64,000 bases of DNA from a virus (taxonomy: Duplodnaviria > Heunggongvirae > Uroviricota > Caudoviricetes). Each line of letters starts with the position of its first letter. Position 1 is the stretch's first letter. The notes beneath the pieces were generated by a model, which was not told the DNA's origin, searched no databases, and worked only from the letters and a program-made list of their open reading frames with translations. The DNA is taken from positions 6,073 through 70,072 of the IMG/VR virus record IMGVR_UViG_3300035682_000012. One strand, written 5' to 3'. Shown here one piece after another: positions 3,529 to 46,325 of the stretch. Both the position numbers and the translations under genes were made by a program.

Positions 3529-3553
3529 ATCTTAGGGTTTAATGTTTATACTT

Positions 3554-3563
3554 AAAGATACGA
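3554..3563 (-). promoter_or_regulatory. promoter-like motif AAAGATACGA (TCGTATCTTT on the coding strand)
   Basis: 27 nt upstream of the ATG at 3528; same motif at 25716, 29257, 32276, 45554, 53937, 62027 and variants at 1415, 19131, 19864, 60004. Confidence 0.5.
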
Positions 3564-3583
3564 AATTATTAGGACTTTACCAA

Positions 3584-10014: not shown

Positions 10015-11505
10015 TTAGCAGGTGAATGAAACACACGTGCTGTAATAACAATACGGGTCATTTTTAGGACACGATTCACATGCGCTATAACAGGAACTAC
10101 ACGCCGCCCCCGGACAAGATACTGAATTATGTTCTATTGAAACGTATGATTGGTTATTGGTTGAACCCGTTGTTTTTGTTAGAAATAACATAGCCTTATC
10201 AACCGAAATAAACCATCCTGAAAATACTCGTTTGGATTGTATATTAGATACTATCGTTTTTCTTACAAACGAAATATTACCATCAGTTGTATCTAATAAT
10301 AATACCACATCACCCGCTATTAAATTAAATAAAGCGTGAAACACAACTATACCTTCTCTTTCTATTAAATATCTTGAACCCATAGTATCTTCCCAAGTAC
10401 TATTATCTTCAAATGTTAGTGTATTTAAAAAAGTTAAAACATTTACTTTTTGTTTATTAGTAACAATATTATTAGAATAAATTGCGGTTGATGCTAATGT
10501 ATTATAGTCTAATGAACCAAATGTATTTGTTATATACCTATCAATGTTAAGTCCATTTTCATTTGGTATCTCTATTGTTTTAATAACGTCACCAATCTGC
10601 AATTCTAATGCGGTTTTAAATGTACCATCGGATAGTTCAACTTCATCGGTATCTACTAATTTAGGTAACCATGGTGTATTTGCCACTGTGTTATAGCTTG
10701 ATTTAAAGTTTGTATCTACTTCAAATGTAGTTGAATTATATGTTACATTATCTAATAACATATTTTGATTTAATTTTGTATATTGTCCTATTTGAATTGA
10801 CTCTAATGTTGCTGGATATAAAATATTTAAACTTCTTAATACAAACGAATGTCCCTCCCATTTTTTAGTAGGGTTATATAGATATTCCATTAAAAAATAA
10901 TCAGATGTTACGTTTTCTAATACTACATCTAATTCTGTTTGATTTGATACTTTATAAAATTTAGGATATTGTTCTTTATCATATCCCGGATATCTAGCTT
11001 TTAAAATAAAATTAGGATGCTCTCCATTATCATTAATATTTGTAATATTATTAACTAATGTGTTTGATTCATTCATATATGCAAATTGTGAACCAAAGGT
11101 TGAATCCTTTATTAAATTCATAAAGTTCACTTTATCTCTACAATATGTATCATCTACTAATGCGGTTGTATCATATGCACTTCTAATAATTAAAGTTTCT
11201 GCATTATCATCAATATATGGAATAGTAATTGCCGATTCACCAACTATATGAAATGCGTATATTATACTATTATTATCACAATACGTTTTTAGTTTTGCAT
11301 CCAATTTTTCTAACTGTCCGATGTAATGAATAGATGTAAAATTATTGGCTTTAATAAACGCGTCAAGTGCTGTTAAATCTAAACAATCGATATCTTCTTC
11401 TACTTTTTCAGGGCCATCCCAACCTACCGCTGTATTGATTTCAATTGGTTTTAAATTACCATCTTTGTCGTACATAAAGTCCGAACCTATTAATACTGTT
11501 CTCAT
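10015..11505 (-). CDS. hypothetical protein with Cys-rich C-terminus (496 aa)
   Basis: Long clean ORF; C-terminal 'SCPGAACSSCYSACESCPKNDPYCYYSTCVSFTC'. Confidence 0.55.
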   Translation of the reverse strand: MRTVLIGSDFMYDKDGNLKPIEINTAVGWDGPEKVEEDIDCLDLTALDAFIKANNFTSIHYIGQLEKLDAKLKTYCDNNSIIYAFHIVGESAITIPYIDDNAETLIIRSAYDTTALVDDTYCRDKVNFMNLIKDSTFGSQFAYMNESNTLVNNITNINDNGEHPNFILKARYPGYDKEQYPKFYKVSNQTELDVVLENVTSDYFLMEYLYNPTKKWEGHSFVLRSLNILYPATLESIQIGQYTKLNQNMLLDNVTYNSTTFEVDTNFKSSYNTVANTPWLPKLVDTDEVELSDGTFKTALELQIGDVIKTIEIPNENGLNIDRYITNTFGSLDYNTLASTAIYSNNIVTNKQKVNVLTFLNTLTFEDNSTWEDTMGSRYLIEREGIVVFHALFNLIAGDVVLLLDTTDGNISFVRKTIVSNIQSKRVFSGWFISVDKAMLFLTKTTGSTNNQSYVSIEHNSVSCPGAACSSCYSACESCPKNDPYCYYSTCVSFTC

Positions 11506-13090: not shown

Positions 13091-13363
13091 TTATTTTATT
13101 TTATTAATGATTGTATTAAATTCTTGTCTTTCTATCTTATCTGCGTTATACATTTCAAATTCATCCTTATCCTTATCGTTTCTTAAACAAATGATATGAT
13201 ATTCATTATTCATATCCGATTTGTATATTACATCTTTAACATATCCAAATTCAGCATCATCCATTGAAGCTCTAAACCTCATTACGAATATTGGTTTAGG
13301 TTTATGGACGATATTTGGATTCACACTCATTGGTGGCGGGATTGGTATTGAATTTCCGAACAT
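13091..13363 (-). CDS. hypothetical protein (90 aa)
   Basis: ATG at 13363, immediately preceded by a CCCCCAACCCCC tract. Confidence 0.5.
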   Translation of the reverse strand: MFGNSIPIPPPMSVNPNIVHKPKPIFVMRFRASMDDAEFGYVKDVIYKSDMNNEYHIICLRNDKDKDEFEMYNADKIERQEFNTIINKIK

Positions 13364-13434
13364 AGGATTGAGAGAGGGGGTTGGGGGTGAGAGTAGTCGT
13401 TTTTAGCTTTTTTCGTAAATCGTATTTGTATATA

Positions 13435-14496
13435 TTATTTCTTTAGGTCTTTAATCTTTCCTTTACGCACTTTTGTTTTATCTAACTTAACTACCTCTTT
13501 AGTTTTATTATCAATTTGCCATTTACCCATTACCTTTTCGGTTACCTTTTGGTTTGGTTTCTTTGCATATGGTGCAAAAATTGCTTTACCATCAAATCCA
13601 CCATCATTAGATACCTCACCACTTTCCATATCTACTACATCATTAGCAAACTTAACGGGTTGGTGTTTCTCTTTTACTTCTTCATTATATCTCGCTACCG
13701 CTTTGATTAACTTTTCTTTGATTGGATTTTCGATATTGAATTCTATATTTGCTACATCGGCGTTTAAGATACCTAATTGCTCATCGATGTTATCCATTTT
13801 TAAATCAATATCTACCATTCGGTCTTTGATAAGTGCAATGGAATCATTGATACTATTAAGGATTGTATTCGATTCATAATCATATCCTTTAATGTTATCA
13901 TCCCAATCGTAAGTGTAGTGTGTACCTTCGTTACCATTTTGACCAATGATATCCATTCTTCGTTCCGCTTCCCTTTCCATTTCGTCTTCGGCATACTTTC
14001 TCATTTCTTCAACGGCATCTATATTACGTTCTTCTTCTATTGGTGTTTCACTTTCCCAATCTTTAAATTGACCTTCGTAATCTTCTTTATCATTTTCATC
14101 TATCATTTCATCATCTTCATCACCCCATTCTTTAAATTCGTGTCCTTCACTATCGGCGGTCCAACTACCAAAACCATTTTTAGCTTTCCATTCATCTAAT
14201 CTATCTTTAGGGGTACTATGACGAAGGTCCGTATATGTATCCTCATCATCAAACTTCCATTCCTCTAATTTTTCTTTTAGGTCTTCTCTTTCGTTGTCGT
14301 GAATATCGGCGGAAAGTTGTTTGATTACATCATTCCAAGAACTCATTTCAAAGCCGGAAGCAATGGTGAGACCTTTAAAAATTTCCATTAATTCACTTAA
14401 ATCAAAATCGGAGTGGTCTAATTCAATAGTTACAGTTTTACCATACATAGAAGCGGTAAACTTAGCGGGTGGGTTGGGTGTGTTAGAATATATCAT
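13435..14496 (-). CDS. highly acidic (D/E-rich) protein, 353 aa
   Basis: Long ORF, low-complexity acidic middle, C-terminal lysine-rich tail. Confidence 0.55.
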   Translation of the reverse strand: MIYSNTPNPPAKFTASMYGKTVTIELDHSDFDLSELMEIFKGLTIASGFEMSSWNDVIKQLSADIHDNEREDLKEKLEEWKFDDEDTYTDLRHSTPKDRLDEWKAKNGFGSWTADSEGHEFKEWGDEDDEMIDENDKEDYEGQFKDWESETPIEEERNIDAVEEMRKYAEDEMEREAERRMDIIGQNGNEGTHYTYDWDDNIKGYDYESNTILNSINDSIALIKDRMVDIDLKMDNIDEQLGILNADVANIEFNIENPIKEKLIKAVARYNEEVKEKHQPVKFANDVVDMESGEVSNDGGFDGKAIFAPYAKKPNQKVTEKVMGKWQIDNKTKEVVKLDKTKVRKGKIKDLKK

Positions 14497-17245: not shown

Positions 17246-17701
17246 CTATTCAAACTCTGCTTCTATTTCCTTAGCTACTGCTCTGCTCTTTTTAGCAGTT
17301 GTTATAGCGTGTTCGTTAGTTCTTAGTAAAATCTCTTGTCCTATGTACCTATTGGCTAGATTCTCGTTTACAAATCTCTTTAGTGTTCTACTCTTATATA
17401 CTACACTATATACGTCTTGCATTAAGTTTTCTGAGTAGTTACTTACTATCTTATATAGTTTTTCGTACTTTTGTCTTATTGTCTCTCTCTTTGTTAGTTT
17501 CTTAGCTATTTGTTTTTTAGCTACCGCCTTTGTTTGTTTCTTAGCTACTACTTTTTTAGCTACAACTTTTTTCTTAGGTACTGCTTTCTTTACTACCTTC
17601 TTAGCTACTACTTTCTTTGCTACTACCTTCTTTTTAGGTGTTGCTTTCTTTGTTACTGACTTAGTTACTTTCTTTGCTTTCATTGTTACTTTCTTACTCA
17701 T
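17246..17701 (-). CDS. histone H1-like lysine-rich DNA-binding protein
   Basis: Reiterated 'KKVVAKKVVAKKVVKKAVPKKKVVAKKVVAKK' in the N-terminal half, helical C-terminal half. Confidence 0.65.
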   Translation of the reverse strand: MSKKVTMKAKKVTKSVTKKATPKKKVVAKKVVAKKVVKKAVPKKKVVAKKVVAKKQTKAVAKKQIAKKLTKRETIRQKYEKLYKIVSNYSENLMQDVYSVVYKSRTLKRFVNENLANRYIGQEILLRTNEHAITTAKKSRAVAKEIEAEFE

Positions 17702-18707: not shown

Positions 18708-19112
18708 TTAAGCCCAGTACATTATAAGGATATTCTCGACCTGCTTATTACCTAATCCCATCGCCTTCAATTCACGTTTAACCGATGGTATAAATTTCTT
18801 ATCAATCTGCCCGTAGCTCATAGGGTAGTCAGAAATGATACGAGTAATTTGAGCAGACTCTTTTTTCAACATACTAAAAAACGCACACGCCTTTAAAATT
18901 TCGGGTTTGTTTCTACATACTACCTTATGCATACGACCCATAAAATCCTTAAACATTACTATTGAATTAGGTTTTACCGCGTTACTCATTTTAGTAGCAG
19001 AAAAATTAACATAAACAGGTCTCTCGTTACGAGCAGTACTATAAGCTTTGTCAGTAAATTCATTTGTCATTTTGTTATTCATATATAAAATTTTTGTTAT
19101 GTGAGGAGTCAA
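18708..19112 (-). CDS. hypothetical protein (134 aa)
   Basis: Minus-strand ORF, preceded by repeated intergenic element C. Confidence 0.5.
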   Translation of the reverse strand: MTPHITKILYMNNKMTNEFTDKAYSTARNERPVYVNFSATKMSNAVKPNSIVMFKDFMGRMHKVVCRNKPEILKACAFFSMLKKESAQITRIISDYPMSYGQIDKKFIPSVKRELKAMGLGNKQVENILIMYWA

Positions 19113-19378
19113 ACCTTCGACTCAATACATAAAGATAACCCTTTTTCGTGGACTTTTAACACGTTTTAGGTACTATTTTAAAAATTCTTTATTGACTATC
19201 AACGAGTTACGTCACCAAATATGTGGGACCGGCATAAGTCATTGACGCTGAACCACTTACATATGCTACTGAAAATCAATGACTTATGTATTTCACCCCT
19301 TCATATTAGAAAAAATCTAAATATATTCAATTTTATTAGATAATTTTCATTTCAAAGCGGTGCTATTTTAAATAATAT

Positions 19379-19744: not shown

Positions 19745-20346
19745 TTCGGTCAGTTTTAAAATAAACGGGTTAGGTGGTCGCTATTTTGAAGGGGTAAGTA
19801 TAAAGGGAGTAACCAAGCAACCATTTGAGAATAGTATTTATTCTGTCCTAACCCGTTATAACTAAGATACGATAATTTATTTAATCTACCAAATTATATT
19901 GAATCTTTTTGTGTGGGGTATGTGTGTAAAAATAGTCTCTAAAAAATTTTGCGGTCCGACTGAATGGATGGATAAGGTCTAAATGCCGTTGTGATACCTA
20001 TTGTTTCCTTTCCATTCTCTTTGTAACCCTTATTAGTGTTATATTGTGGGGGTTTGTGGGTATAAGTGGGAAATTATTGTACGATGGACCTTATTATTGC
20101 GTTATTTGGTATCAATATACATAAATAGGGATATGATACACTTATACCCGTTATTTGATACCATCTAATAAATGATACTATCTAATTCTTTTACTTCGCT
20201 CCTTATCCCATTGGTAAGTAAAGAAAGCTATGAATAGGGGTGTTATAATCCATTGATACCATTCTACCTTTGTTAATTGTGTAAAGTACAAAAGGAACAT
20301 AATTGTATTTAGTATTGCGAGTGTGAGTGATATGTTTTTATTCATA

Positions 20347-20673
20347 TTAATTATTCATTTGTAGTATTAACTCTATATTGTGTAGAAACATATCTTTCCA
20401 ACGGATTTGTGCAATTGTTAATTGTTTTCTACGTTGTGGCTCTAACATATTGTATAAGGTATAGTAATTATAAGTGTCCATACCTTTACCTTTTACTTTA
20501 TTCCTTTGTAGTATTAAGATTTCATCCCCTTTTGTAAATGTGTTATTAGTAGAATGGATATTGATTTGATAATAGTCTTCGTATTCATATACACCTTCTA
20601 TATTATACCCATCAGTTGTACGATGTAATACCCTTTCACCTTTCAGTTTACTTCTATTGTGTATTGTTAGCAT
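20347..20673 (-). CDS. MLTIKN-family small protein
   Basis: N-terminus MLTIHNRSKLKG; ~105 aa like its paralogs. Confidence 0.6.
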   Translation of the reverse strand: MLTIHNRSKLKGERVLHRTTDGYNIEGVYEYEDYYQINIHSTNNTFTKGDEILILQRNKVKGKGMDTYNYYTLYNMLEPQRRKQLTIAQIRWKDMFLHNIELILQMNN

Positions 20674-20775
20674 ATCCTTTACTTTATTAGTTTTATTATT
20701 TCTATATACACTACTATCATTATTAGTGTTATTATCATTACGCTTATAGTTAGTGTTAGTAGTGACATAGTATTC

Positions 20776-21024
20776 TTATACATTCCTTAGTTCCATACAT
20801 ACACTACATACATTATCTGAATCCTTTTTTATATTATGTATATTACAATATTGGGTTTCTTTACTATGTGTATTATATGTATTGTTATCTGAACTACCGC
20901 TACTATTTCCTTTGCCACTTTTTTCTCTTATCCAATTATACATCCAATCGTTTTGATTACTCATATCGATTATTTTTATATCTTTTTCCGTGTATCTATA
21001 ATTCATATCAATTATTTTTTCCAC
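20776..21024 (-). CDS. hypothetical protein (82 aa), C-terminal CxxC
   Basis: Minus-strand ORF. Confidence 0.45.
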   Translation of the reverse strand: MEKIIDMNYRYTEKDIKIIDMSNQNDWMYNWIREKSGKGNSSGSSDNNTYNTHSKETQYCNIHNIKKDSDNVCSVCMELRNV

Positions 21025-21311
21025 TCACCACTCTTTAATAAGTTTGTTATATAATCCATACTTTGTAATGTAGTAAGGTATACGGGTGCATCATACGTTT
21101 TACCTTTGTATATTACACACGTTGGATGCCATACCATACTACCATTATCTAATTCTAACTTATTCATATTATCTACGTTTGATTTGTTTATTGATTATCT
21201 TATTAAGGTATATAGTTGATACCCTACTTGCCTTACCCCTTTGCCTTATACCCCATATTAAATTATTGATTAAGAATATACTCTTTATACTATGTGCTCT
21301 ATTCATATTAA

Positions 21312-21641
21312 TTACATTTCAATTATTGTTTTCAATTCATACATCATACTATCCATCGTATCAATATTTTCTATTCTTATTATACATCTATTCAATACAC
21401 CTATTACGATATCAATAGAAGTTATCATATATTCATACTCACTCGCTCCATCCGGCCTTTCACGTCCTATCTTCATTGTCAATTCATTATTATGATTTTT
21501 TGAGAATGCATCGCTGGTCCCTATAATTATTTCATATGCCGATTTGTTTTCCCTTACATCTAATATCTTCCATGATTCGGTCATAGAATGTGTCATAATA
21601 TATTGACCTTTTAATTTCTTATAGTTTTGTATTGTTAGCAT
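21312..21641 (-). CDS. MLTIKN-family small protein (true start at internal MLTIQNYKKLKG)
   Basis: The ORF-table extension overlaps the next paralog; internal ATG gives a ~110 aa family-sized protein. Confidence 0.55.
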   Translation of the reverse strand: MLTIQNYKKLKGQYIMTHSMTESWKILDVRENKSAYEIIIGTSDAFSKNHNNELTMKIGRERPDGASEYEYMITSIDIVIGVLNRCIIRIENIDTMDSMMYELKTIIEM

Positions 21642-21646
21642 AAGGT

Positions 21647-21925
21647 TTATATTATATTTGCCATAAAATGTGTCATAGTTAGTAAAAACTTTTTGCAATC
21701 CAATACATCCTTTTTTTGTACCCACATTTGCTGCCCTTCATATGTCATACAATAGTAATCCTTATATGGATGATTGATTTGTGGTGGGTGTATACGGCTT
21801 AGAGTGACCTTATTTAGTGGGTATCCGTTATCAATCCAAAATACATACGCCCAATCAATTTCTTGCACTCTAACATTTACCTTTGTATAATTTCTTATCC
21901 TATCTATGTTATGTATTGTCAACAT
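21647..21925 (-). CDS. MLTIKN-family small protein
   Basis: MLTIHNIDRIRNY. Confidence 0.6.
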   Translation of the reverse strand: MLTIHNIDRIRNYTKVNVRVQEIDWAYVFWIDNGYPLNKVTLSRIHPPQINHPYKDYYCMTYEGQQMWVQKKDVLDCKKFLLTMTHFMANII

Positions 21926-22246
21926 TTATATTGCGTTTAATATTTGCTCAATTTCATTCCTAAATTTCTCGGGTGTGTTTAACCTTTCTTTTATATAATG
22001 AAATAGTAATCCATCAATTTCAATTCCATAAACATAACAATCTTTATTTTGGCTGTTATCAAACACTATACGTCCCTTTTTATGTAGGGTTATATTTTTT
22101 CTTACCAAATGTGGCGGTGATACCTCTCTTATTGAAAAATGTGTAACCTCACTCGTAGTATTATCCCAACCTTTGAAATACCATCCTTTGCCTTTTACAT
22201 TTAATGAATACCCATTTATTTTATGGATGTTTTTAAGTATTAGCAT
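21926..22246 (-). CDS. MLTIKN-family small protein
   Basis: MLILKNIHKINGY. Confidence 0.6.
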   Translation of the reverse strand: MLILKNIHKINGYSLNVKGKGWYFKGWDNTTSEVTHFSIREVSPPHLVRKNITLHKKGRIVFDNSQNKDCYVYGIEIDGLLFHYIKERLNTPEKFRNEIEQILNAI

Positions 22247-22550
22247 CTTCGTCTCTTTTTATATTTGCAATTATACAATTCATATAATAGATTAGCCCTA
22301 CGGGTGATATATCAATAGGGCGTATTAGGACCTCATATAATTTACCATTACGATTTGTTTTCATTCTATACATGCCCATTACTTCATCCTTATTCCTATC
22401 AAATGTAACGTACCATTGTGTTGATTTGTAATGGCCTACATTAGTTAGTACAAATTGATATTCGGTAGGGGCTTCAATTGCTTCATACACTTCCCACTTA
22501 TCCGTTATTTGTTTGCCGTTAATTTTTTCTATGTTTCTTATCTTTAGCAT
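22233..22550 (-). CDS. MLTIKN-family small protein
   Basis: MLKIRNIEKINGK. Confidence 0.6.
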   Translation of the reverse strand: MLKIRNIEKINGKQITDKWEVYEAIEAPTEYQFVLTNVGHYKSTQWYVTFDRNKDEVMGMYRMKTNRNGKLYEVLIRPIDISPVGLIYYMNCIIANIKRDEDANT

Positions 22551-22551
22551 A

Positions 22552-22851
22552 TTATTTCATTATCATTTCAACCGCTCTTATAAAAGTTTGTTTATTACTT
22601 ATTTGTTCTACCTTTAATAACATACTATTAATAGGAGTAGCTTCATTCCATATTATATAACCCTTATCCGTTTTAAATCTATTCAATACAATTTTAATAT
22701 CACTATACGTTTTATTTATATGTCTCAAATGAATATGATATTGTTCGTTACCCTCTTGATTCCAACTCCATGTGTTAAGTACATAATAAACTCCCGTACC
22801 ACCATCAATTCTTTGATTGATTAGTGTAAACATATTTTCTATTGTTAGCAT
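22552..22851 (-). CDS. MLTIKN-family small protein (start at internal MLTIENMF)
   Basis: Family N-terminus at an internal ATG; the conserved 'attgttagcat' on the + strand marks the start. Confidence 0.55.
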   Translation of the reverse strand: MLTIENMFTLINQRIDGGTGVYYVLNTWSWNQEGNEQYHIHLRHINKTYSDIKIVLNRFKTDKGYIIWNEATPINSMLLKVEQISNKQTFIRAVEMIMK

Positions 22852-22922
22852 TGTATATATAGTTTTTACTATCAAAAAAATTTAGGTAACGACACTTTTT
22901 TCCCCCAACCCCCGCCCGCCGT

Positions 22923-23099
22923 TATTTACTTATTCTTTTGTTTATTAAATTCTTCTATTAAACTTTCTATCATATCATCCCCTAAATGAATATTATGTAA
23001 GAATTTAATCATAGAATATTGTGCTAAATACATTGATGTGGATACTTTTTTATCCCCGTCTACTAATTCTATTCTAATTTGTGCTTCTGTATTTTCCAT
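22923..23099 (-). CDS. small hypothetical protein (58 aa, MENTEAQIRIELVDG...)
   Basis: ORF just below the table cutoff, filling the gap between two family members. Confidence 0.35.
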
Positions 23100-23110
23100 A
23101 TTATTTTGTT

Positions 23111-23434
23111 TTATTTACTGAAACTATCTAATTGTCCGCCTAACATACCAGGAAACATTTTGAAATCTAATAAACCTTTTGTTAGTGTTACACAATTACT
23201 ATTTTGGTCATTATACATTCGCCATTCGTTTGCTGTACTATCGAATTCATTATATCTTAATATTTTAAATTTTATATACTTTGGATGCTTTACTCCGAAT
23301 GATTTACCATAATCAAATCTAACTTTGATATTATAATCATATTTTAGTTCCTCTATACTCATTACTACCCAATGTGCATGCACTGTCTCTATTTTAGTTC
23401 CTTCTATCTTTTGTATATTACCTATTTTTAGCAT
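23111..23434 (-). CDS. MLTIKN-family small protein
   Basis: MLKIGNIQKIEGT. Confidence 0.6.
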   Translation of the reverse strand: MLKIGNIQKIEGTKIETVHAHWVVMSIEELKYDYNIKVRFDYGKSFGVKHPKYIKFKILRYNEFDSTANEWRMYNDQNSNCVTLTKGLLDFKMFPGMLGGQLDSFSK

Positions 23435-23435
23435 A

Positions 23436-23747
23436 CTATTCGTTTAACATTTTATCAATTGCTTGCTTTATAAAGTACGGGCTTATTTGATGTAAACTTA
23501 ACCACCTATTTATTTTAGTTTGGTCAAAATCTTTATACAATCTATAAACAGGTTCGTTTCTACCGCTTACATATTGGCTCTCTCTATTCAAATAAAATAT
23601 ATTTTGTATTTTACCATTTATAGAAACAGCAAATCCATATACATCTTTATAAGTATCAACTGCTTCAGTTGCCTTAATTATATGCCATTTGTAAGGTAGT
23701 GGTGATGTTATGTTTATTATCTTATCTATGTTTTGTATTTTTAGCAT
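23436..23747 (-). CDS. MLTIKN-family small protein
   Basis: MLKIQNIDKIINI. Confidence 0.6.
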   Translation of the reverse strand: MLKIQNIDKIINITSPLPYKWHIIKATEAVDTYKDVYGFAVSINGKIQNIFYLNRESQYVSGRNEPVYRLYKDFDQTKINRWLSLHQISPYFIKQAIDKMLNE

Positions 23748-23758
23748 ATCATTTTTAT

Positions 23759-24073
23759 TTAACCTAATGCAACTAATCTTAACTTGTCAATGAATATATC
23801 CATATTACCAATTTCTTTTGGTGTTATGTAGTATATGTGTCCCGTGCTACTATGTAATTTATAATCATAGTTACCATCACGTCCCACCTCATCCCTATCT
23901 AATGTGACCGTTATTGCCCATTTTCTATTAGTTAATTCAAATATGTATTTATGGTTTTTTGTAGTGAACATTGCTCCATCCATATCAAATTTTTCCTCAA
24001 CCCTTTCTACATAAAAGTTTTTCTTACCGAGTGTTTTATGCTGTATCTTATTTATGTTTTGTATTCGTAGCAT
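23759..24073 (-). CDS. MLTIKN-family small protein
   Basis: MLRIQNINKIQHK. Confidence 0.6.
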   Translation of the reverse strand: MLRIQNINKIQHKTLGKKNFYVERVEEKFDMDGAMFTTKNHKYIFELTNRKWAITVTLDRDEVGRDGNYDYKLHSSTGHIYYITPKEIGNMDIFIDKLRLVALG

Positions 24074-24074
24074 A

Positions 24075-24317
24075 CTATTTATTTAAAAACCATTTTCCAA
24101 ATTTGAATATCATTTTGAAAATACCAATTATTAAAATCATAGGTATTATCACCGGCCAAAATATAGAGAATGCAGTAAATGCTTGTTCATTACTATCCCA
24201 GTCATCCCATTCCATTTTACGATTATCATAATCAAATCCAATTTTCACTCCAAAGTATTTGAAAAATGTTAGTGTCAATAAAAATCCTATTATGTATATT
24301 GTTATTATTGTTATCAT
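24075..24317 (-). CDS. small membrane protein (80 aa, 2 TM)
   Basis: Hydrophobic segments IITIYIIGFLLTLTFF and WPVIIPMILIIGIF. Confidence 0.5.
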   Translation of the reverse strand: MITIITIYIIGFLLTLTFFKYFGVKIGFDYDNRKMEWDDWDSNEQAFTAFSIFWPVIIPMILIIGIFKMIFKFGKWFLNK

Positions 24318-24526
24318 ATGTTATTCCATTTATTTGCGAAGTTATTATCATTTTTAAGTAAATAATCAAACTCTTCTATTTTTAATATTCTAAATTTTCC
24401 GGTAGAGTCTTCCACTAACCAATTATCATAAAGCCAATCATCTAAATCACCTACATCTGATTTTCTCCATAGTTCGTCCATTCCGTTACCATAGTTATCA
24501 TATAGTGTTTCTAATGCTGTTTTCAT
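24314..24526 (-). CDS. hypothetical protein (70 aa)
   Basis: Minus-strand ORF, ATGA overlap with the next gene. Confidence 0.5.
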   Translation of the reverse strand: MKTALETLYDNYGNGMDELWRKSDVGDLDDWLYDNWLVEDSTGKFRILKIEEFDYLLKNDNNFANKWNNI

Positions 24527-24654
24527 TTTATTTCTTCGATTTTGATGCTTTAATCAATTTTGATGCTTTAATCAATAGTATTGTTATCCATACTACTGCC
24601 GTCAATACACATGCTATTTCTACTATCAATGCTATCGTTGCTATTGTTTTCATT

Positions 24655-25524
24655 CTATATAAATTTTATTATTGCTAAATCTTTTTGTTTTGCTTCTACC
24701 ATTATGTCCACTATGTTGCCGTATGTTTCAGGAATCCTTTCAATGAAATCACTATGTGCCTGTGGCTTACTACCCATCTTACTTTCAGAATAGTGAACTG
24801 CCGGTGTTATACCTTTCGGCCATGTACTCATAGCTAACTCTAATGCATCTTGCTCACTTAAATTTCCGGTATTGAATGTGTGATGATGATAATCAAATAC
24901 AATAGGTATCTTTATTGCATTGTGAATATACATTAAGTCTTTAACTGAATACATACTCGCCTTATCGTCATTCTCAATTGTTAATCTGCTCTTTACTGAA
25001 TCAGATAGTAGTTTAAAATTATCTATGAACCTATCCATCGCACTTTGCTTATCACCATACACTCCGTTACAATGTATATTGATTTTATTGTAAGGTGTTT
25101 TAGATAATCCTATCGCATCCATCAACCTACCATGCACTTCTAAATCATTTATTGTATTTTGTACTACCGCTTCTTTTGGTGAAACTAATACATTAAAAGG
25201 ACCTGGATGAAATGATAATCTTTGTCCATACTTTGTTGCTTTATCACCACATCTTTTTAGTATGATTGCAATTTCATTCCAATCTTTTAATTGTTCAAAT
25301 TGATATTCAGTAGCCCATGGCATCATATCGGAACTCATACGATACATCTTAATACCATTCTGCTCATTCCATTCTATAATCCGTTCTAAGTCCGCTACAT
25401 TTTGTATAACACAATCCGATACATAATCCAGTCCCTTTTCTAAAAAAGTTCTCTTAATCATTGTTCGGTTTGTAGTGACCTTTTTACCCAAACTCATATT
25501 AATACATGCATATCCTAAATTCAT
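24655..25524 (-). CDS. uvdE: UV DNA damage endonuclease (UvdE/Uve1 family)
   Basis: 'TIENDDK', 'VFDYHHH', 'MVEAKQKDLAI' and the overall TIM-barrel UVDE layout, co-linear with bacterial UvdE. Confidence 0.88.
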   Translation of the reverse strand: MNLGYACINMSLGKKVTTNRTMIKRTFLEKGLDYVSDCVIQNVADLERIIEWNEQNGIKMYRMSSDMMPWATEYQFEQLKDWNEIAIILKRCGDKATKYGQRLSFHPGPFNVLVSPKEAVVQNTINDLEVHGRLMDAIGLSKTPYNKINIHCNGVYGDKQSAMDRFIDNFKLLSDSVKSRLTIENDDKASMYSVKDLMYIHNAIKIPIVFDYHHHTFNTGNLSEQDALELAMSTWPKGITPAVHYSESKMGSKPQAHSDFIERIPETYGNIVDIMVEAKQKDLAIIKFI

Positions 25525-25694
25525 ACTTTCTTTGTTTTTCGTTTGAGTAATTCGGTTTCTATTTTAGATATTCTACCTTCCATAGAATGTATTTTAAATC
25601 TATGTATGAAATTACCTAATATTGTTTTAGGTATTCTAGCTTGCTCTGCAATCAATGATGCTTTCATTGCTCTTAGAATTTTTCTTAGTGCCAT
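25521..25694 (-). CDS. small protein (57 aa, MALRKILRAMKASLIAEQARIPK...)
   Basis: The ORF-table start is TTG-derived; the internal ATG at 25694 lies 24 nt downstream of the promoter-like motif. Confidence 0.45.
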   Translation of the reverse strand: MALRKILRAMKASLIAEQARIPKTILGNFIHRFKIHSMEGRISKIETELLKRKTKKV

Positions 25695-25715
25695 ACTATG
25701 AATTAGTTTATACTT

Positions 25716-25725
25716 AAAGATACGA
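25716..25725 (-). promoter_or_regulatory. promoter-like motif AAAGATACGA
   Basis: 24 nt upstream of the ATG at 25694. Confidence 0.5.
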
Positions 25726-25796
25726 AATATATATGAAACTATCAAAAAAAAATTAGGTTAAACGACCTTCGCTCAACCCCCGCCCCTTCCCGCTGA

Positions 25797-26180
25797 TTAT
25801 ATTGTTTGCATACAAATTATAATCTTATCCGTTGTGTCAAACTCATCTTTATTTAACCATAATGTGTGACCATTATATTCCAGTATATAACATCCATTTT
25901 CGGTTTGCTTTCTATGTAATAAGAAAGTTTCTATTTGGCTCATTTCTTTATTAGCCAATGTAAATTCATAATGATATTGATTCTCGTTTGCACCAATTAC
26001 TTTTAACCAATCACTATATTCTTGTCCGATTAATTGTTGCGGATTTTTTATTGTTAGCATATTATTTTGTTTTATCATTCGGTCATCAAACACACTCATA
26101 TCACATACATCGCACCAGTCAGTATCATCATAGTTAATTGGATTGTTGCATCTAATACAATCATGTACATTCATATCCAT
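25797..26180 (-). CDS. zinc-ribbon N-terminal extension fused to an MLTIKN-family domain
   Basis: 'CIRCNN ... CDVCDMS' (2x CxxC) in frame upstream of 'MLTIKNPQQLIG'. Confidence 0.5.
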   Translation of the reverse strand: MDMNVHDCIRCNNPINYDDTDWCDVCDMSVFDDRMIKQNNMLTIKNPQQLIGQEYSDWLKVIGANENQYHYEFTLANKEMSQIETFLLHRKQTENGCYILEYNGHTLWLNKDEFDTTDKIIICMQTI

Positions 26181-26500
26181 TTCATTTTTGATATATCTTG
26201 AATAATTGCATTCATATCAGTTGCTACCCAATTCCAATTCTTTATTAATACCTTATCTATATAACGAGTTTCTGTTGTCCTATAAACGTAACTATTAATT
26301 ATACCCCACATACCATACTTACCCTCAGGATTAGCTTCTCTTGCTAAATAGATAGAACACAATGGTATGCAATCCTTATCCCTTATTCTAAATTCATATA
26401 CCAATTTTTTTTCCTCTACATCATATATGGTGCAACGTTCAAACAGGAAAAAATCACTTTCTGTCATTGGGTTACCTATATAATTCTTTATTGTTAGCAT
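26171..26500 (-). CDS. MLTIKN-family small protein
   Basis: MLTIKNYIGNP. Confidence 0.6.
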   Translation of the reverse strand: MLTIKNYIGNPMTESDFFLFERCTIYDVEEKKLVYEFRIRDKDCIPLCSIYLAREANPEGKYGMWGIINSYVYRTTETRYIDKVLIKNWNWVATDMNAIIQDISKMKWI

Positions 26501-26501
26501 A

Positions 26502-26798
26502 CTATTTAATTATAAGTTCGGTAATTCGTTTTATCATTTTCCGCTTTGTATCGATTTTATTCTTTGCTAATAAACTTCGTTGAACATTTCCATTCTTATC
26601 CCAATACCATAATTCATATAATGCCGTGTCACCTCGTCCAATTGGTGTCCGCTCTAAACTCATTTCAAATCCAATGTTATGGTTATTAGCCACTACTATT
26701 CTATATTGAGTTTCAGTTTCCTCAACATTATGGATAAATACAGTCGTATCTCTAATCTTTGTATTTACAATTTCAATATAATTCTTAATTGTTAGCAT
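26502..26798 (-). CDS. MLTIKN-family small protein (start at internal MLTIKNYIEI)
   Basis: Internal ATG gives the family N-terminus. Confidence 0.55.
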   Translation of the reverse strand: MLTIKNYIEIVNTKIRDTTVFIHNVEETETQYRIVVANNHNIGFEMSLERTPIGRGDTALYELWYWDKNGNVQRSLLAKNKIDTKRKMIKRITELIIK

Positions 26799-27085
26799 AT
26801 CAATCCGTTTATACACCTAACTACATATCGCATATTTTTTAGTTGGTCTTTTGTTATTGCCATATACTCCGTACCATATGTTAGTATGAACAATCCAATA
26901 GGTGTAGGTTTGCGGCTTATAGTACAATATATAAAATAGTTATAACCACGATTATTTATACTGATATGATAATGATTGAGTGAACTTCTAATTTTATTTA
27001 TAGACCAACCATTCCCTACATCTGATAATACAATGTTCTCACTATTTTTTATCGTTATCCGATTTTGTTTCAATGTTGGCTGCAT
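26792..27085 (-). CDS. divergent MLTIKN-family member (..NRITIKNSENI..)
   Basis: Family-like length and 'ITIKN' near the N-terminus. Confidence 0.45.
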   Translation of the reverse strand: MQPTLKQNRITIKNSENIVLSDVGNGWSINKIRSSLNHYHISINNRGYNYFIYCTISRKPTPIGLFILTYGTEYMAITKDQLKNMRYVVRCINGLIC

Positions 27086-29039: not shown

Positions 29040-29250
29040 TTCGTTTTGTTTTATACAAAGATACTAAATGAATTATCAATATTGTACTATTCACCACTAT
29101 AACCGGATTATCATTTCGTATAATTCCGTATGACATCCATAATACGCAACCAATTGAGTTTAATATTCTCAATAGTTTCATATTCTTAGCCATCATTGAT
29201 ATTAATGTAACTATTGTAGCCACATATCCTAGTATTTCTATTGTATTCAT
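29020..29250 (-). CDS. small membrane protein (start at internal MNTIEILGYVATIV)
   Basis: 2-3 hydrophobic helices; ATG at 29250 immediately downstream of the AAAGATACGA motif. Confidence 0.5.
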   Translation of the reverse strand: MNTIEILGYVATIVTLISMMAKNMKLLRILNSIGCVLWMSYGIIRNDNPVIVVNSTILIIHLVSLYKTKRNESMGM

Positions 29251-29284
29251 ATACTTAAAGATACGAAAAATTACCCATTTTACC

Positions 29285-29313
29285 AAAGAAAAAGGGTACT
29301 TTTTATGTACCCC
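29285..29313 (-). terminator. rho-independent terminator
   Basis: Minus-strand GGGUAC-AUAAAAA-GUACCC followed by UUUUUCUUU, just downstream of the stop of 29380..30177. Confidence 0.5.
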
Positions 29314-32275: not shown

Positions 32276-32285
32276 AAAGATACGA
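32276..32285 (-). promoter_or_regulatory. promoter-like motif AAAGATACGA
   Basis: About 18 nt upstream of the ATG at 32260. Confidence 0.5.
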
Positions 32286-32378
32286 TAAATTATTCAAACT
32301 ACCAAATGTTATTGTGATTTTCTATTCTTAGCCTTTACATCTATTGTACCTTTGGTATTAGTTTTACCAACTGAATTG

Positions 32379-35780: not shown

Positions 35781-36512
35781 TTACAATGTAACTACACCAC
35801 GTTTTTGTACAACTTTTGTTGCACAATCATTTGCGTATTCAATACTAACTTCTATACTTTTTGTTTTTAAATAACTAACTACTAATGAAGCCATAAAGGT
35901 ATCACCTGCACCACTCAAATCTCTAACCTCAATATCGTTGTTAACCGGATATGTAATACCATCATACATTGCACCTCGTTCACTCATTGTTATAATTAAT
36001 CTTTCTCGCCACATTTCGTATTCCTGTCCTTTACAATTTTCCCACTCAACTTCATTTATCTTAATGAATGTATAATTACGCATTTCTGCTGATAATGGTT
36101 TCTTTGTATCTATAAAAGTTAATGGATGTGAATCACTAATCAATTTCAAATCTGATAATGATAGAAATCCTTTGTCATAATCACTTACAATAACTGCATC
36201 ATAATCATTGAATGGAACTCTTTTTACATCAAATGAATTACTAACCTTATCATTACTATCAATTCTGATAATCATATGATTTGCTTTTTCCTCTACATAT
36301 CTAGTCTTTGTAATTTGTTCTTTGTTAGTAACCAACTCAACTTTCTCAGCTCCCAACGATTTAAGATTAGCTACTACATTACCACTCATACCCATATTGG
36401 TAATTGTTCTACTCGGTTCAAATATTGGCACAGGTCCTTCGGGACATAATCTTTTACAATAACCATATACAAATACATCAGTACAACTATCACCGATAAC
36501 TAAAACTTTCAT
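35781..36512 (-). CDS. pfkB-family carbohydrate kinase (HldE/RfaE kinase-domain-like)
   Basis: N-terminal 'KVLVIGDSCTDVF ... PEGPVPI' and C-terminal 'DLSGAGDTFMASLV' pfkB signature. Confidence 0.65.
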   Translation of the reverse strand: MKVLVIGDSCTDVFVYGYCKRLCPEGPVPIFEPSRTITNMGMSGNVVANLKSLGAEKVELVTNKEQITKTRYVEEKANHMIIRIDSNDKVSNSFDVKRVPFNDYDAVIVSDYDKGFLSLSDLKLISDSHPLTFIDTKKPLSAEMRNYTFIKINEVEWENCKGQEYEMWRERLIITMSERGAMYDGITYPVNNDIEVRDLSGAGDTFMASLVVSYLKTKSIEVSIEYANDCATKVVQKRGVVTL

Positions 36513-36568
36513 AATAACGATTTCCTATAAGTATTAATATGTTCAAAAAAATGATTAGCCATTCGTTG
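36508..36568. repeat. 61 bp direct repeat (copy 1), spanning the end and junction of SGNH paralogs
   Basis: 'ttcataataacgatttcctataagtattaatatGttcaaaaaaatgattagccattcgttg', identical except for one base to 37271..37331. Confidence 0.7.
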
Positions 36569-37282
36569 GTTAAACTTTTTTAGTATTTCTACTGACATGA
36601 TTTGTTGTCCTTTTACACCAATATGTCCATCTTGCATCTTACCATTACTTTCATCGGAAATAGTTGCTTTGTGTTCTTTGAAACAATCCTCTCCACCTAT
36701 ATATTTGTTCTCAAATTTAAGAAAGTATGGTTTTTTTAGAATTTCAATTTCATGTATATTTGGAGAATCTGGAGATTCTAAACACCAAAATACAACATTT
36801 TTTGTTTTTAGTAAATTTATTAATTTTTCAAATCTATTAAGTTGTCTGTGTTTGTATGCCGGTAATCCTGCAAAATAAACTGCAAAATCTACTAATGTTT
36901 CGTGTTTATGGTCAGTCATATCATCATCACCTATTAAGTTTACGTTAATATGTCTACTATCATCATATCTAACAATTGTATGTAAAAAACTAAATGAGCT
37001 TTTGTGTGGAACATCAAATCTACTATAATATGTAGCTTGGATTACAACATAATCGTTTTCTCCAATCTTATCTGCGTTATTTAAAATGTTGTCCAATATA
37101 TAGTCATTGGATGCACCTACTCTAGCGTGATTATGTAGTTCCAAATTTAATTCATGTGCTACTATTTCACACCAATATCTTTTATCAATATCATCGGATA
37201 AAGTAACTTCATAGAATGGGTCAGAATTATTAAAGCCGTGCCCATGTGAAAAACTATCACCGAAAATCCATAACTTATTCAT
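36509..37282 (-). CDS. SGNH/GDSL-like hydrolase, paralog 7
   Basis: 'WIFGDSFSHGHG' block I; 'DGHIGVKGQ'; C-terminal 'MANHFFEHINTYRKSLL' shared with paralog 8. Confidence 0.65.
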   Translation of the reverse strand: MNKLWIFGDSFSHGHGFNNSDPFYEVTLSDDIDKRYWCEIVAHELNLELHNHARVGASNDYILDNILNNADKIGENDYVVIQATYYSRFDVPHKSSFSFLHTIVRYDDSRHINVNLIGDDDMTDHKHETLVDFAVYFAGLPAYKHRQLNRFEKLINLLKTKNVVFWCLESPDSPNIHEIEILKKPYFLKFENKYIGGEDCFKEHKATISDESNGKMQDGHIGVKGQQIMSVEILKKFNQRMANHFFEHINTYRKSLL

Positions 37283-37331
37283 AATAACGATTTCCTATAA
37301 GTATTAATATATTCAAAAAAATGATTAGCCA
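37271..37331. repeat. 61 bp direct repeat (copy 2)
   Basis: See copy 1; encodes the shared C-terminus '...MANHFFE[HY]INTYRKSLL' plus the gene junction. Confidence 0.7.
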
Positions 37332-37950
37332 TTCGTTGATGTCCTAACTCATTAAAATGTTTATCAATATTACCATTCGGTTCTATAATATGTTGTTCCT
37401 CTAATTGGTCTTGCCACTTTGTATAAAACGAATAGTTTGTAAATTCGTTTGTTGAATTGGGTGCAGGTATAAAAGTAATAATCTCTTTGTATTTTTTAAA
37501 ATCTGAATGAACTTGTCCTTCTGCACTCCAATAGTAAATTGATATTTTTTTTTTAATACACCAATTGTTTACTTGTTTATTAAACCAATTATAATTAACC
37601 TTCCTCATTTCTACTAAATTATCTGCAAATGTTCCACCATTAGAATGTCTACTAAAATAAGCTTCTAAATCTATTAATTGTGCTTTTGTTGGATAAATAT
37701 TATACCTATCAAAGAATGTAAATTCAAATACAACCTTATCGCCTGGCTGAATTTCATCTCTCCTATCTATGAATTGCAATATAGATACCCAATTACATTG
37801 TCCAGGACGTGCACTATTTACTAATTCTAAATCTAATTTATCCGCCAATACATACGGCCAACTAATTCTTAATGTATCTTCATCAGTAGGTTGAATCAAA
37901 TTCATTCCGGTTGAAAACGAACAGCCAAATACCCAAAGTTTATTTTTCAT
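37279..37950 (-). CDS. SGNH/GDSL-like hydrolase, paralog 8
   Basis: 'WVFGCSFSTGMN'; C-terminal 'GHQRMANHFFEYINTYRKSLL'. Confidence 0.6.
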   Translation of the reverse strand: MKNKLWVFGCSFSTGMNLIQPTDEDTLRISWPYVLADKLDLELVNSARPGQCNWVSILQFIDRRDEIQPGDKVVFEFTFFDRYNIYPTKAQLIDLEAYFSRHSNGGTFADNLVEMRKVNYNWFNKQVNNWCIKKKISIYYWSAEGQVHSDFKKYKEIITFIPAPNSTNEFTNYSFYTKWQDQLEEQHIIEPNGNIDKHFNELGHQRMANHFFEYINTYRKSLL

Positions 37951-45164: not shown

Positions 45165-45503
45165 TTATTTACGTTTATCATATTCGGCATCTAAAATCCC
45201 TTGCATTGAAGCTAAGAAATTCTTTTTATCTAGTAATCTATCTTTCGGCCATGCTGTAATTGAAATAAATTTATCATAGTGTTCATAACATACGCAAATA
45301 TTATAACCAAATTCCCCTGCTTTTCTTTCAATTTGAATAGCGGCACCAACACTATCTTTACTATTACTATTTCTACTTAAACGAATATTATAATGGTCTG
45401 CGTTTATGTGATGTTCACTAGCACCACATACTTCTACTCCCAAGACTTCCCATTTTCCAATGTATGTATTTTTTAATTTTTCTATATTATTTAGTGTTAG
45501 CAT
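45165..45503 (-). CDS. MLTIKN-family small protein
   Basis: MLTLNNIEKLKNTY. Confidence 0.55.
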   Translation of the reverse strand: MLTLNNIEKLKNTYIGKWEVLGVEVCGASEHHINADHYNIRLSRNSNSKDSVGAAIQIERKAGEFGYNICVCYEHYDKFISITAWPKDRLLDKKNFLASMQGILDAEYDKRK

Positions 45504-45530
45504 ATATTATGATTTTTTATTATATGAGTA

Positions 45531-45655
45531 GTCATTCTCTCAACTCAATACATAAAGATACGACTTTATATTGAATTGGCAATGCCCAAAGTGAACTAAT
45601 TTTAAAAGTTTTTATTGAGAATCAACTAGTTACGTCAATATAACCTTATCATATT
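45531..45655. repeat. ~120 bp repeated intergenic element, copy A
   Basis: 'cattctctcaactcaatacataaagatacgactttatattg...caaagtgaactaattttaa...ttacgtcaatat' aligns along its length with copies at 53911..54035 and (more loosely) 19111..19230. Confidence 0.55.
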
Positions 45656-45683
45656 AGTATTTTTTATTATATGATACCTAATA

Positions 45684-46007: not shown

Positions 46008-46008
46008 A

Positions 46009-46272: not shown

Positions 46273-46325
46273 AATTTGTTTTATTTAATCTATAAAGGTA
46301 GTTAATTTTTCTGATACTACCAAAT

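Follow-up and report, generated by a model that had tools for sequence, protein, structure and literature searches.

The closest described counterparts of the element considered here are the promoter-early stem-loop (PeSL) cassettes of T4-type phages, in which a stable poly-G/poly-C stem-loop is combined with a full sigma-70 promoter, at some 50 cassettes per genome (Arbiol et al. 2010, PMC2839356; Comeau et al. 2014, PMC4122927). Two further systems are comparable through their G-runs. In CSB II, the conserved sequence block II of human mitochondria, GAAGC-G5AG7-TTTGGTGG-AAA-T6-GTT (also written GAAGC-GGGGGAGGGGGGG-TTTGGTGG-AAA-TTTTTT-GTT), both POLRMT and T7 RNA polymerase terminate in and just after the T-tract, with both tracts being needed for this. 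At the pilE G-quadruplex (G4) of Neisseria gonorrhoeae, recombination needs the G4 motif together with transcription from an adjacent small-RNA promoter (PMC3547852, PMC13463697). Here we analyze a 64,000-nt stretch of a virus of the Caudoviricetes (positions 6,073 to 70,072 of IMG/VR virus record IMGVR_UViG_3300035682_000012), hereinafter the window, in which three G/C tracts at 22902..22921, 25775..25793 and 13371..13395 are copies of an undescribed family of non-coding intergenic elements of 45–78 bp.

These tracts had been singled out in a sequence-only reading of the window. Inspection bore out their coordinates, and nhmmer the element shared by the spacers of the first two (sites 1 and 2; E-values in Table 1). 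The third copy (site 3) indeed lies in the opposite orientation and forms, in gene sense, a C-rich leader that stops 12 nt short of the ATG of gene 13091–13363; it has more in common with the others than a shared 12-mer, being an inverted and diverged copy with the same blocks. The 12-mer itself, CCCCCAACCCCC (GGGGGTTGGGGG), occurs twice as against 0.00 times expected from 100 shuffles of the window, and the two 20-nt segments with the highest G+C content in the 64 kb are those of sites 1 and 2. The three sites also provide the three highest-scoring segments in G4Hunter (absolute scores of 1.92–2.04), although one segment at such a score is not extreme, first-order Markov sequences having a mean maximum of 1.62 and a top value of 2.20. 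To describe the genome as almost devoid of G/C runs was an overstatement: runs of at least five number 11 for C and 4 for G, as compared to about 9 and 1, respectively, expected by our arithmetic from a composition of 29% G+C. What is non-random is the recurrence of paired G-runs along with the other blocks, not the number of runs. Such tracts are not frequent in the window, where the family profile matches only the three copies in nhmmer, and all three are conserved in position in relatives: site 1 in L025, L036 and L047, site 2 in L001–L010, L023, L024 and L038, and site 3 in L029, L040 and L169–L172.

A scan of IMG/VR with the pattern GGGGGTTGRG-N3-10-GTCG-N6-12-TTTTTT, in which the terminal GATAGT was not required, matched 38 stretches. 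Three of these, in G+C-richer contigs, look like chance or ordinary terminators and were set aside; the remaining 35 hold 36 copies on contigs of 27–34% G+C and 6–251 kb. Adding GATAGT to the pattern retrieved 118 further metagenome stretches, mostly freshwater with a few marine, and the element is thereby found in more than 150 contigs of uncultured AT-rich freshwater phages. The same extended pattern has 0 matches in 185,579 bacterial and archaeal genomes (one per species), blastn with the element yielded no meaningful match among 50,697 phage records, and no Rfam family was matched at the gathering threshold in the window or in four loci. There are one to three copies per contig, even in contigs of 100–250 kb.

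On the G-rich strand, the family consensus comprises two or three G-runs, N3-10, GTCG, a W-rich segment, GG or CC, A2-5, T6-9 and GATAGT. Direct copies open with GGGGG-TT-GGGGG, optionally preceded by a further run (GGG or GGGG and then C or T), and continue after 3–8 nt with GTCG and then with 5–8 W-rich nucleotides closing in GG(G) or CC(CC) before A2-5, T6-9 and GATAGT; a GG or a CC stands directly before the A-run in all of them (GG-type and CC-type copies). In the 78 unique direct-copy sequences that we analyzed, the G-runs, GTCG, the T-run and GATAGT, which the search pattern itself had fixed, are kept and the linkers are variable. Copies found by the profile alone, on which the pattern was not imposed, likewise keep GGGG-YY-GGGG, GTCG, the T-run and GATAGT. 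As these preserve two runs without the exact 12-mer, it is the runs of G that are the conserved feature, their number and the intervening dinucleotide varying down to minimal variants with two runs. GTCG and the G of GATAGT are 17–18 nt apart in 63 of the 78 copies, with linker lengths that compensate each other (r = −0.67); the spacing from the G-runs to GTCG is variable (3–10 nt), and by our arithmetic the last G-run of direct copies precedes the T-run by about 17–22 nt. A long form has an extra C/A-rich extension, TACGAAACCACAAACCACGAACCGAA, starting right at the upstream stop codon. In the window the minus-strand order is TAA-ATAA-CGGCGGGCGGGGGTTGGGGG-AAAAAAGT-GTCG-TTACCTAAA-T7-GATAGT at site 1 and TAA-TCA-GCGGGAAGGGGCGGGGGTTGAG-CGAAG-GTCG-TTTAACCTAA-T9-GATAGT at site 2; the plus-strand blocks of site 3 are GGGGGTTGGGGG-TGAGAGTA-GTCG-TTTTTAGC-T6.

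Copies of the element take up the spacer between one gene's stop codon and the next gene's start codon. The upstream stop lies 1–42 nt before GGGGGTTG, and the upstream gene usually belongs to a family of ~100-residue ORFans with the N-terminus MLTIxN. The G-rich strand is the coding strand in 27 of the 36 IMG/VR copies. Conservation stops sharply past GATAGT, which is followed directly (0 nt) by the next ATG in 13 of 43 distinct downstream contexts with unrelated genes and by CATG in 7 more. The placement of the tracts immediately upstream of gene starts, as originally described, is correct, but sites 1 and 2 are equally just downstream of a gene: they begin 4–5 nt past the upstream stop codon, site 1 lying between the stop of gene 22926–23099 and the start of the paralog gene 22552–22851, and site 2 starting 3 nt past the stop of gene 25797–26180 with its G-runs from 5 nt. 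The suggestion that these are regulatory sites gains support from the strong conservation of the intergenic family and from site 2, where a terminator-like hairpin is found with a complete host-type promoter.

We tentatively favor the view that the element is a mobile non-coding stop-and-restart transcription cassette as well as a recombination seam, analogous to the PeSLs of T4, which would fill the spacers in ORFan and paralog arrays of an uncultured clade of large phages with ~29% G+C and contigs of up to 251 kb. In the first place it would be an attenuator or terminator, the G-runs and GTCG folding in the nascent RNA just upstream of the A2-5/U6-9 tract. In CC-type copies such as site 2 this fold would be an ordinary G·U-rich hairpin formed with the C-run as partner, and in the majority a small G-quadruplex or DNA:RNA hybrid quadruplex closed by short helices, following the CSB II layout. 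The T-run and TTGATAGT, at the T-tract/−33 position of the phage promoters, would then constitute a restart module that directly abuts the next start codon in many copies and is part of a full promoter at site 2. Finally, as a sequence shared by several junctions and many genomes, the element would offer a crossover point for homologous recombination, which would shuffle the flanking genes and admit endonuclease gene cassettes.

Regarding termination, site 2 scores as an intrinsic terminator, with a fold of −17.3 kcal/mol (z = −2.6); at site 3 a hairpin with G·U pairs precedes a U-tract on the antisense strand only. Across the family, CC-type copies, in which the C-run can pair with the G-runs, reach a mean of −9.8 kcal/mol as plain hairpins. 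GG-type copies have a mean of −4.7 kcal/mol without and −17.1 kcal/mol with the quadruplex option of ViennaRNA, which gives each of the 58 a two-tetrad G4, built from G5-UU-G5, in its minimum-energy fold. This predicted fold is closed by short helices using the GTC of GTCG and ends 3–4 nt before the U-tract. The G-quadruplex potential ascribed to the tracts is thus upheld in silico by G4Hunter (1.9–2.0) and ViennaRNA, and the three sites fall by score in the G4-prone class of two-tetrad or hybrid G4s (hybrid criterion from PMC4176368). We infer that the G-run module acts via a hairpin in some copies and via a quadruplex-type structure, as predicted by these models, or a bound factor in the rest. 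A reading that dispenses with the hairpin altogether would have the element terminate or attenuate the bacterial polymerase through a co-transcriptional G4 (RNA or DNA:RNA hybrid) and the U-tract, convergently with CSB II, the G-runs being at the same time a recombination hotspot that diversifies the at least 16 MLTIxN paralogs; we deem this unlikely.

Several observations weigh against a stop-and-restart cassette. Most copies lack a hairpin: site 1 folds worse than its shuffles (z = +1.5), three further family members fold no better than theirs, and RNAalifold gives the long form a weak consensus hairpin of −7 kcal/mol, with one compensatory pair as compared to five breaks. A conserved RNA hairpin across the family was accordingly rejected, as the folds are not above shuffles and there is no convincing covariation. 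The claim of quadruplex potential does not extend to the classical motif (four runs of at least G3 with loops of 1–7 nt), since every site has at most three such runs. Between the predicted structure and the U-tract lie 2–5 A residues, whereas the canonical terminators of the window have the U-run right after the stem, and quadruplex-dependent termination, documented for single-subunit polymerases, would by analogy be only conjectural for the multi-subunit bacterial enzyme. An ATG abutting GATAGT leaves no room for a promoter of its own, and therefore no strong terminator would be expected there unless transcription restarts; of the 43 downstream contexts, 40 lack a −7 box at the required spacing and three have a complete sigma-A-type promoter. 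Scored for translation initiation in this phage, the tail TTTTTTTGATAGT ranks at the 12th percentile. The cassette leaves the exact GATAGT/ATG junctions and the invariance of GTCG without an explanation, and inverted copies cannot act on sense transcripts in the same way.

The sigma-A promoters of Bacteroidota have the architecture −33 TTTG/−7 TAnnTTTG. This motif is said to go back to work of Bayley and colleagues in 2000 and of Vingadassalom and colleagues in 2005. In the window TTTG-N19-21-TAnnTTTR occurs 20 times as against 8.3 expected, and several spacers share the repeated promoter TTTGGTA-N13-TTTCGTATCTTTA. At site 2, TTTGATAGT-N11-TTTCGTATCTTTA is part of a four-copy promoter repeat family (D4), the other copies of which have TTTGGTA in that place, and the −33 TTTG is the one within the TTTTTTTTTGATAGT of the element. 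The two boxes are spaced as this motif requires (19–21 nt) at site 2 (25715–25746, N20) but not at sites 1 and 3, the tail of site 1 having no −7 box at the right spacing downstream. The genes predicted to be under the site 2 promoter are a 57-residue gene (25521–25694) followed by UvdE (24655–25524); the former has a helix-turn-helix-like stretch, SLIAEQARIPKTILGNFI, and could be a small regulator, with no match in Pfam or PHROGs. A perfect −7 box at N20 is seen in three independent downstream contexts; site 2, L018 and downstream context D38 each have a complete promoter. Reading the T-run/TTTG as a mere −33 box was rejected, as it accounts for these 3 of the 43 contexts only, as was the use of the TTG in the G-runs as a −33 box for a −7 box at TTTTTTTG, the spacing being 21–26 nt instead of 20. 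Resemblances to sigma-54, extracytoplasmic function (ECF), sigma-70 and SPO1-late promoters were dropped on account of misfits in spacing or invariant bases.

Gene starts in the window are A-rich upstream, with a peak at −10 to −13 (59–72% A) and T at −1 (65%), and no Shine-Dalgarno signal is present across all its predicted gene starts; by sequence, this context is consistent with a Bacteroidota host. Given these A-rich positions and its low rank, the tail was rejected as a translation-initiation region, and for genes that abut it, a transcription start or processing that leaves the RNA 5′ end at the ATG or close by is a better explanation than ribosomes loading there. In relatives, two canonical promoters (L018 and D38) have the arrangement box-N4-ATG, and therefore leaderless messages probably exist in this group. 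Such messages are central to an alternative that is live, if somewhat unlikely: a phage factor or modified host polymerase would read the G-runs/GTCG as a box together with the T-run and start at or after GATAGT, giving a small gene class leaderless or short-leader mRNAs. A loose comparison is with the middle promoters of T4, where MotA, bound to a box around −30, takes the place of −35 recognition. A specialized promoter of this kind would fit the ATG and CATG junctions at unrelated genes, the sharp end of conservation past GATAGT, the near-constant distance of GTCG from GATAGT with its compensating linkers, and a tail poor for translation initiation, which leaderless mRNAs would not need; TTTTTTTG even stands at the place of the −7 box in the two canonical leaderless promoters. 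It nevertheless has no TA at the −7 position and, as noted, its G-run TTG is wrongly spaced; moreover, one to three copies per contig are few for a promoter class, a canonical terminator hairpin comes immediately after the element in L001 and L048, and at site 3 and the other inverted copies the G-rich strand offers no gene for such a promoter.

As for gene exchange, clustering of the flanks resolved 36 upstream and 43 downstream contexts that are joined many-to-many, one upstream context with 13 downstream ones and one downstream context with 5 upstream ones. All four combinations of prefix type and linker type are present, as would be expected of crossovers inside the invariant core. In pairwise comparisons of relatives we observe gene-sized indels exactly at the edges of the element. 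After GATAGT, L048 has a hairpin terminator and a promoter, both canonical, a 293-residue endonuclease VII-like gene and a second, degenerate element, the site being empty in L012; L018 has a 194-residue endonuclease gene between two element copies; and L001 has a terminator-promoter-233-residue gene cassette after GATAGT, at a place taken in L043 by a 29-nt leader. Likewise, the window has an additional 57-residue gene at the 5′ edge of site 1 relative to L025, and L170 has, relative to the window, an additional 70-residue gene exactly between the stop codon of the 353-residue gene and the site 3 spacer. The inserted genes of L048 and L018 match phage endonuclease families (E = 5e-11 and 2e-14, respectively); a guess that the 233-residue gene of L001 encodes a NUMOD4/HNH endonuclease found no support in Pfam or PHROGs. 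Some inserted genes carry their own hairpin terminator and canonical promoter, which amount to a second, conventional PeSL-like module.

The sequence-only reading took the presence of both orientations to argue for a DNA-level role. That argument is weak: the orientation bias of 27 out of 36 and the inverted copies forming a distinct subfamily favor a transcription-linked role instead, even if a DNA-level role in recombination is evidenced by the above exchanges. A dedicated recombination site, targeted by the neighboring free-standing endonucleases or acting as a pilE-like G4 hotspot and diversifying the MLTIxN arrays, is a live alternative that we consider distinctly unlikely. Such a site would agree with the many-to-many flanks and mosaic elements, the endonuclease-like genes directly 3′ of GATAGT in several relatives, the occurrence of both orientations (often within one contig), the location inside a family of at least 16 paralogs, and the precedent of pilE, where a G4 motif works together with transcription from an adjacent promoter (PMC3547852, PMC13463697). 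However, homologous exchange in any conserved 45-bp repeat yields the same mosaic with no dedicated mechanism, the strong co-orientation with genes is unneeded for a DNA site, three different genes inserted at one point argue against the specificity of a single enzyme, and the insertion in L001, downstream of the element, is a simple one without a second copy. No recombinase or invertase was found among the window proteins scanned, in a search that was not exhaustive.

Other mobile-element classes were considered and rejected. The element is no miniature inverted-repeat transposable element (MITE), as it has neither terminal inverted repeats nor a target-site duplication: by inspection, ACGAAACCAC and the reverse complement of GATAGT match at 4 of 10 positions, and the flanks are without duplication. 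Nor is it an integron attC or serine-invertase crossover site, for want of dyad symmetry; TTTTTGATA presumably resembles one hix/gix half-site. The contig L001 is 99.96% identical to the window over 11.3 kb and then diverges inside the small-gene array (L001 11321–15369 against window position 24204); past the divergence, part of an 80-residue gene is repeated (95.6% identity), followed by unrelated genes and another element copy. Elsewhere in the window, a 61-nt direct repeat (98% identical; 36508–36568 and 37278–37338) at the 5′ ends of two adjacent ~250-residue genes points to recent partial duplication or gene conversion.

Inverted copies, nine in IMG/VR in addition to site 3, have genes on the C-rich strand. 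Most have an 11-nt insert between the T-run and TTGATAGT, and those of the site 3 type lack GATAGT. They are a distinct subfamily with its own conserved position, 2–3.5 kb upstream of a conserved ~500-residue gene (10015–11505 in the window) in otherwise divergent phages; the product of that gene (MRTVLLGTDF...IEINT...) has homologues in L021, L034 and L040 and no family match. In gene sense, their C-tract is followed by a canonical promoter or at once by ATG. In L171 the site 3 stretch AAAAACGACTACTCTCACCCCCAACCCCCTCTCTCAATCCT-ATG is identical to that of the window over 41 nt, as compared to 78% identity of the adjacent gene, and it is therefore under purifying selection. Direct and inverted copies often occur in one contig (L021 with L031, L018 with L039, both L026 copies, and the window). 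The inverted copies may terminate antisense transcripts or furnish a C-rich Rho-loading site in the sense RNA; judging by their sequence, pairing of direct- and inverted-copy sense RNAs or service as an inversion substrate may also be envisaged. Direct and inverted sense transcripts would be complementary over the 12-nt G/C tract and GUCGU/ACGAC (12 + 5 bp).

Function in either orientation would come naturally to an operator at which a sequence-specific DNA-binding protein acts, for example, as repressor, activator or roadblock, nucleic-acid structure playing no part. Three invariant blocks at near-fixed spacing and the resemblance of TTGATAGT to one half of the palindromes TTGA-N3-TCAA, which lie in large regulatory spacers (19.2, 45.6 and 54.0 kb), are in keeping with it, yet we rate it as highly doubtful: the element is without dyad symmetry, the distance between the G-runs and GTCG varies by 3–10 nt, and the number of G-runs and the inter-run dinucleotide change while runs of G persist. 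No candidate binder was found either, the AlphaFold model of the paralog family (pLDDT 83; an antiparallel sheet and a C-terminal helix) having no DNA-binding fold and no significant match in the PDB or BFVD. The regulatory repeat that holds these palindromes (TTGATAGTCAA, TTGATTCTCAA) upstream of AAAGTCGTATCTTTATGTATTGAGTCGAGAGA is ~100–170 nt long and is present in three or four copies in long spacers (19081–19181, 45504–45604 and 53887–53987; also 61980–62154); these look like operator-controlled strong promoters, and their TGAGTCG also occurs in the main element type.

Most improbable, to our mind, is that transcripts stopped at the T-tract and anchored by a hybrid quadruplex or R-loop prime phage DNA replication, even though the layout parallels CSB II and low copy number is coupled to high conservation. 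Site 3 points rightward and the other two sites leftward, so that they converge, whereas divergent leading-strand starts would point apart; cumulative GC skew does not switch across the window, and copies sit at hypervariable gene junctions. A replication origin was rejected on the first two of these grounds.

The window (~29% G+C) has essentially all its genes on the minus strand and few recognizable proteins, namely UvdE, an ATP-dependent DNA ligase, a MoxR-like AAA ATPase and an FG-GAP protein. Neither megablast with the 5-kb region around the sites nor tblastn with a 496-residue protein yielded a match in 50,697 deposited phage genomes. Identical proteins occur on freshwater metagenome contigs, including one of 69 kb that is 99.96% identical over 11 kb and then diverges. 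From the Bacteroidota-type promoters and the A-rich starts without Shine-Dalgarno signal, we take the window to derive from a large phage of a Bacteroidota-like host. Its spacers also include ordinary hairpin terminators. The ~100-residue ORFan family is represented by at least 16 paralogs (20347–27085 and 45165–46676) with an invariant N-terminus of M-L-(T/K)-I-x-N, 15–24% pairwise identity and no Pfam or PHROG match. Tandem 15- and 45-nt DNA repeats at 17246–17701 encode a 151-residue lysine-rich protein (KKVTKSVTKKATPKKKVVAKK...) that, by its sequence, looks like a histone H1-like or DNA-coating protein.

Table 1. Features of the three sites, of promoter repeats in the window and of related loci (window positions unless a contig is named)
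Feature	Position	Strand	Sequence or composition	Remarks
Site 1, full direct copy	22868..22921 (read 22921->22868)	minus	CGGCGGGCGGGGGTTGGGGGAAAAAAGTGTCGTTACCTAAATTTTTTTGATAGT; G-runs, GTCG, ACCTAAA, T7, GATAGT	nhmmer E=5e-11
Site 1 G-runs	22902..22921	minus (coding)	GG C GGG C GGGGG TT GGGGG	
Site 1 GTCG block	22890..22893	minus	GTCG	invariant in family
Site 1 tail	22868..22880	minus	T7 + GATAGT	ATG 16 nt downstream
57-aa gene upstream of site 1	22926..23099	minus		absent at same junction in L025
Gene downstream of site 1	22552..22851	minus		MLTIxN paralog family member
Site 2, full direct copy	25738..25793 (read 25793->25738)	minus	GCGGGAAGGGGCGGGGGTTGAGCGAAGGTCGTTTAACCTAATTTTTTTTTGATAGT; GGG AA GGGG C GGGGG TTGAG, GTCG, TTTAACCTAA, T9, GATAGT	nhmmer E=4.5e-10
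Site 2 hairpin	25755..25779	minus	GGGUUGAGCGA-AGG-UCGUUUAACCU, then AA + U9	11 pairs including G.U
Site 2 promoter	25715..25746	minus	TTTG-N20-TATCTTTA	complete Bacteroidota-type
Gene upstream of site 2	25797..26180	minus		C-terminal part of MLTIxN family
Site 3, inverted diverged copy	13372..13413	plus	GAGAGGGGGTTGGGGGTGAGAGTAGTCGTTTTTAGCTTTTTT; G-runs 13376-13387, GTCG 13396-13399, T6 13408-13413	no GATAGT; nhmmer E=6.7e-5
353-aa gene upstream (gene sense) of site 3	13435..14496	minus		
Part of the element			GGGGCGGGGGTTGGGGG(TGAGTCGTTTAAGG)	oligonucleotide notation
Promoter repeat family	3544-3583, 25706-25745, 29247-29286, 62017-62056		TTTGGTA...TCGTATCTTTA	four copies
Second promoter repeat family	19864-19901, 32277-32314, 60005-60042		TTTGGTA...TCGTATCTTTA	three copies, canonical Bacteroidota-type
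Endonuclease VII-like gene right after element	L048 4155-5036			phrog_1035/3322
Endonuclease gene right after element	L018 7536-8120			phrog_1111
233-aa protein gene after element	L001 13043-13744			no family assigned

If our proposal is right, one portable 45–78 bp module punctuates the early and ORFan gene arrays throughout a clade of abundant uncultured freshwater phages; it would both control transcription and form the seam for gene exchange and for the entry of homing-endonuclease cassettes. The element is in any case a simple sequence marker, being present in more than 150 related contigs and in no cellular genome, and its layout of G-runs, GG-AAA and T-tract makes it a concrete candidate for quadruplex-dependent termination outside mitochondria.

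Set against known systems, site 2 and other CC-type copies resemble intrinsic terminators in that a stop codon is directly followed by a G·U-containing hairpin and then by a U-run; the GG-type majority, like sites 1 and 3, differ in the lack of a stable hairpin and in the A residues before the U-tract. The T-run and TTTGATAGT at the T-tract/−33 position recall Bacteroidota sigma-A promoters, from which most downstream contexts depart in having no −7 box at the required spacing. With pilE the element shares a G-run motif beside promoter-like sequence at a locus of recombinational exchange in a variable gene family, a likeness drawn from sequence alone; pilE, however, is a single locus with a classical four-run G3 motif that undergoes gene conversion, whereas the element has two or three runs at several loci and whole-gene shuffling. 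The parallel with CSB II, compared by layout alone, extends to non-template-strand G-runs, ~11–17 nt ending in GG-AAA, a T6-7 tract and then G, the phage order being GAAGGGGC-GGGGGTTGGGGG-TGAGTCGTTTAAGG-AAA-TTTTTTT-GATAGT, with a hairpin in neither. A T-tract ~10–20 nt downstream of the G-runs, as in the CSB II-type layout, is found in direct copies only, at ~17–22 nt. The element has shorter G-runs (4–6) and the invariant GTCG. The polymerases on which CSB II acts have a single subunit, a replication primer being the product, whereas the enzyme here would presumably be the multi-subunit one of the host; on this analogy the similarity may be convergent or coincidental.

It is the PeSLs that come closest. 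Like them, the element is a short conserved intergenic module spanning the interval between one ORFan's stop codon and the next one's start; it unites terminator-like with promoter parts, has an AT-rich tract and, as is often the case in PeSLs, poly-G, and is concentrated, as PeSLs are, in hyperplastic ORFan regions. The indels and replacements between related genomes at the cassettes, with modular shuffling, are also seen here. The differences lie in the host phages, which use Bacteroidota-type promoters and have no detectable relation to T4, in the low copy number, and in the parts themselves: most copies lack the C-run partner and the −7 box, a stable terminator stem-loop being confined to CC-type copies such as site 2 and a complete host-type early promoter to site 2 and 3 of the 43 downstream contexts. 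We therefore file the element as a variant of the PeSL kind and not as a member. If the proposed cassette is borne out, the PeSL idea of mobile regulatory cassettes would extend from T4-like coliphages to an unrelated group with Bacteroidota-type promoters.

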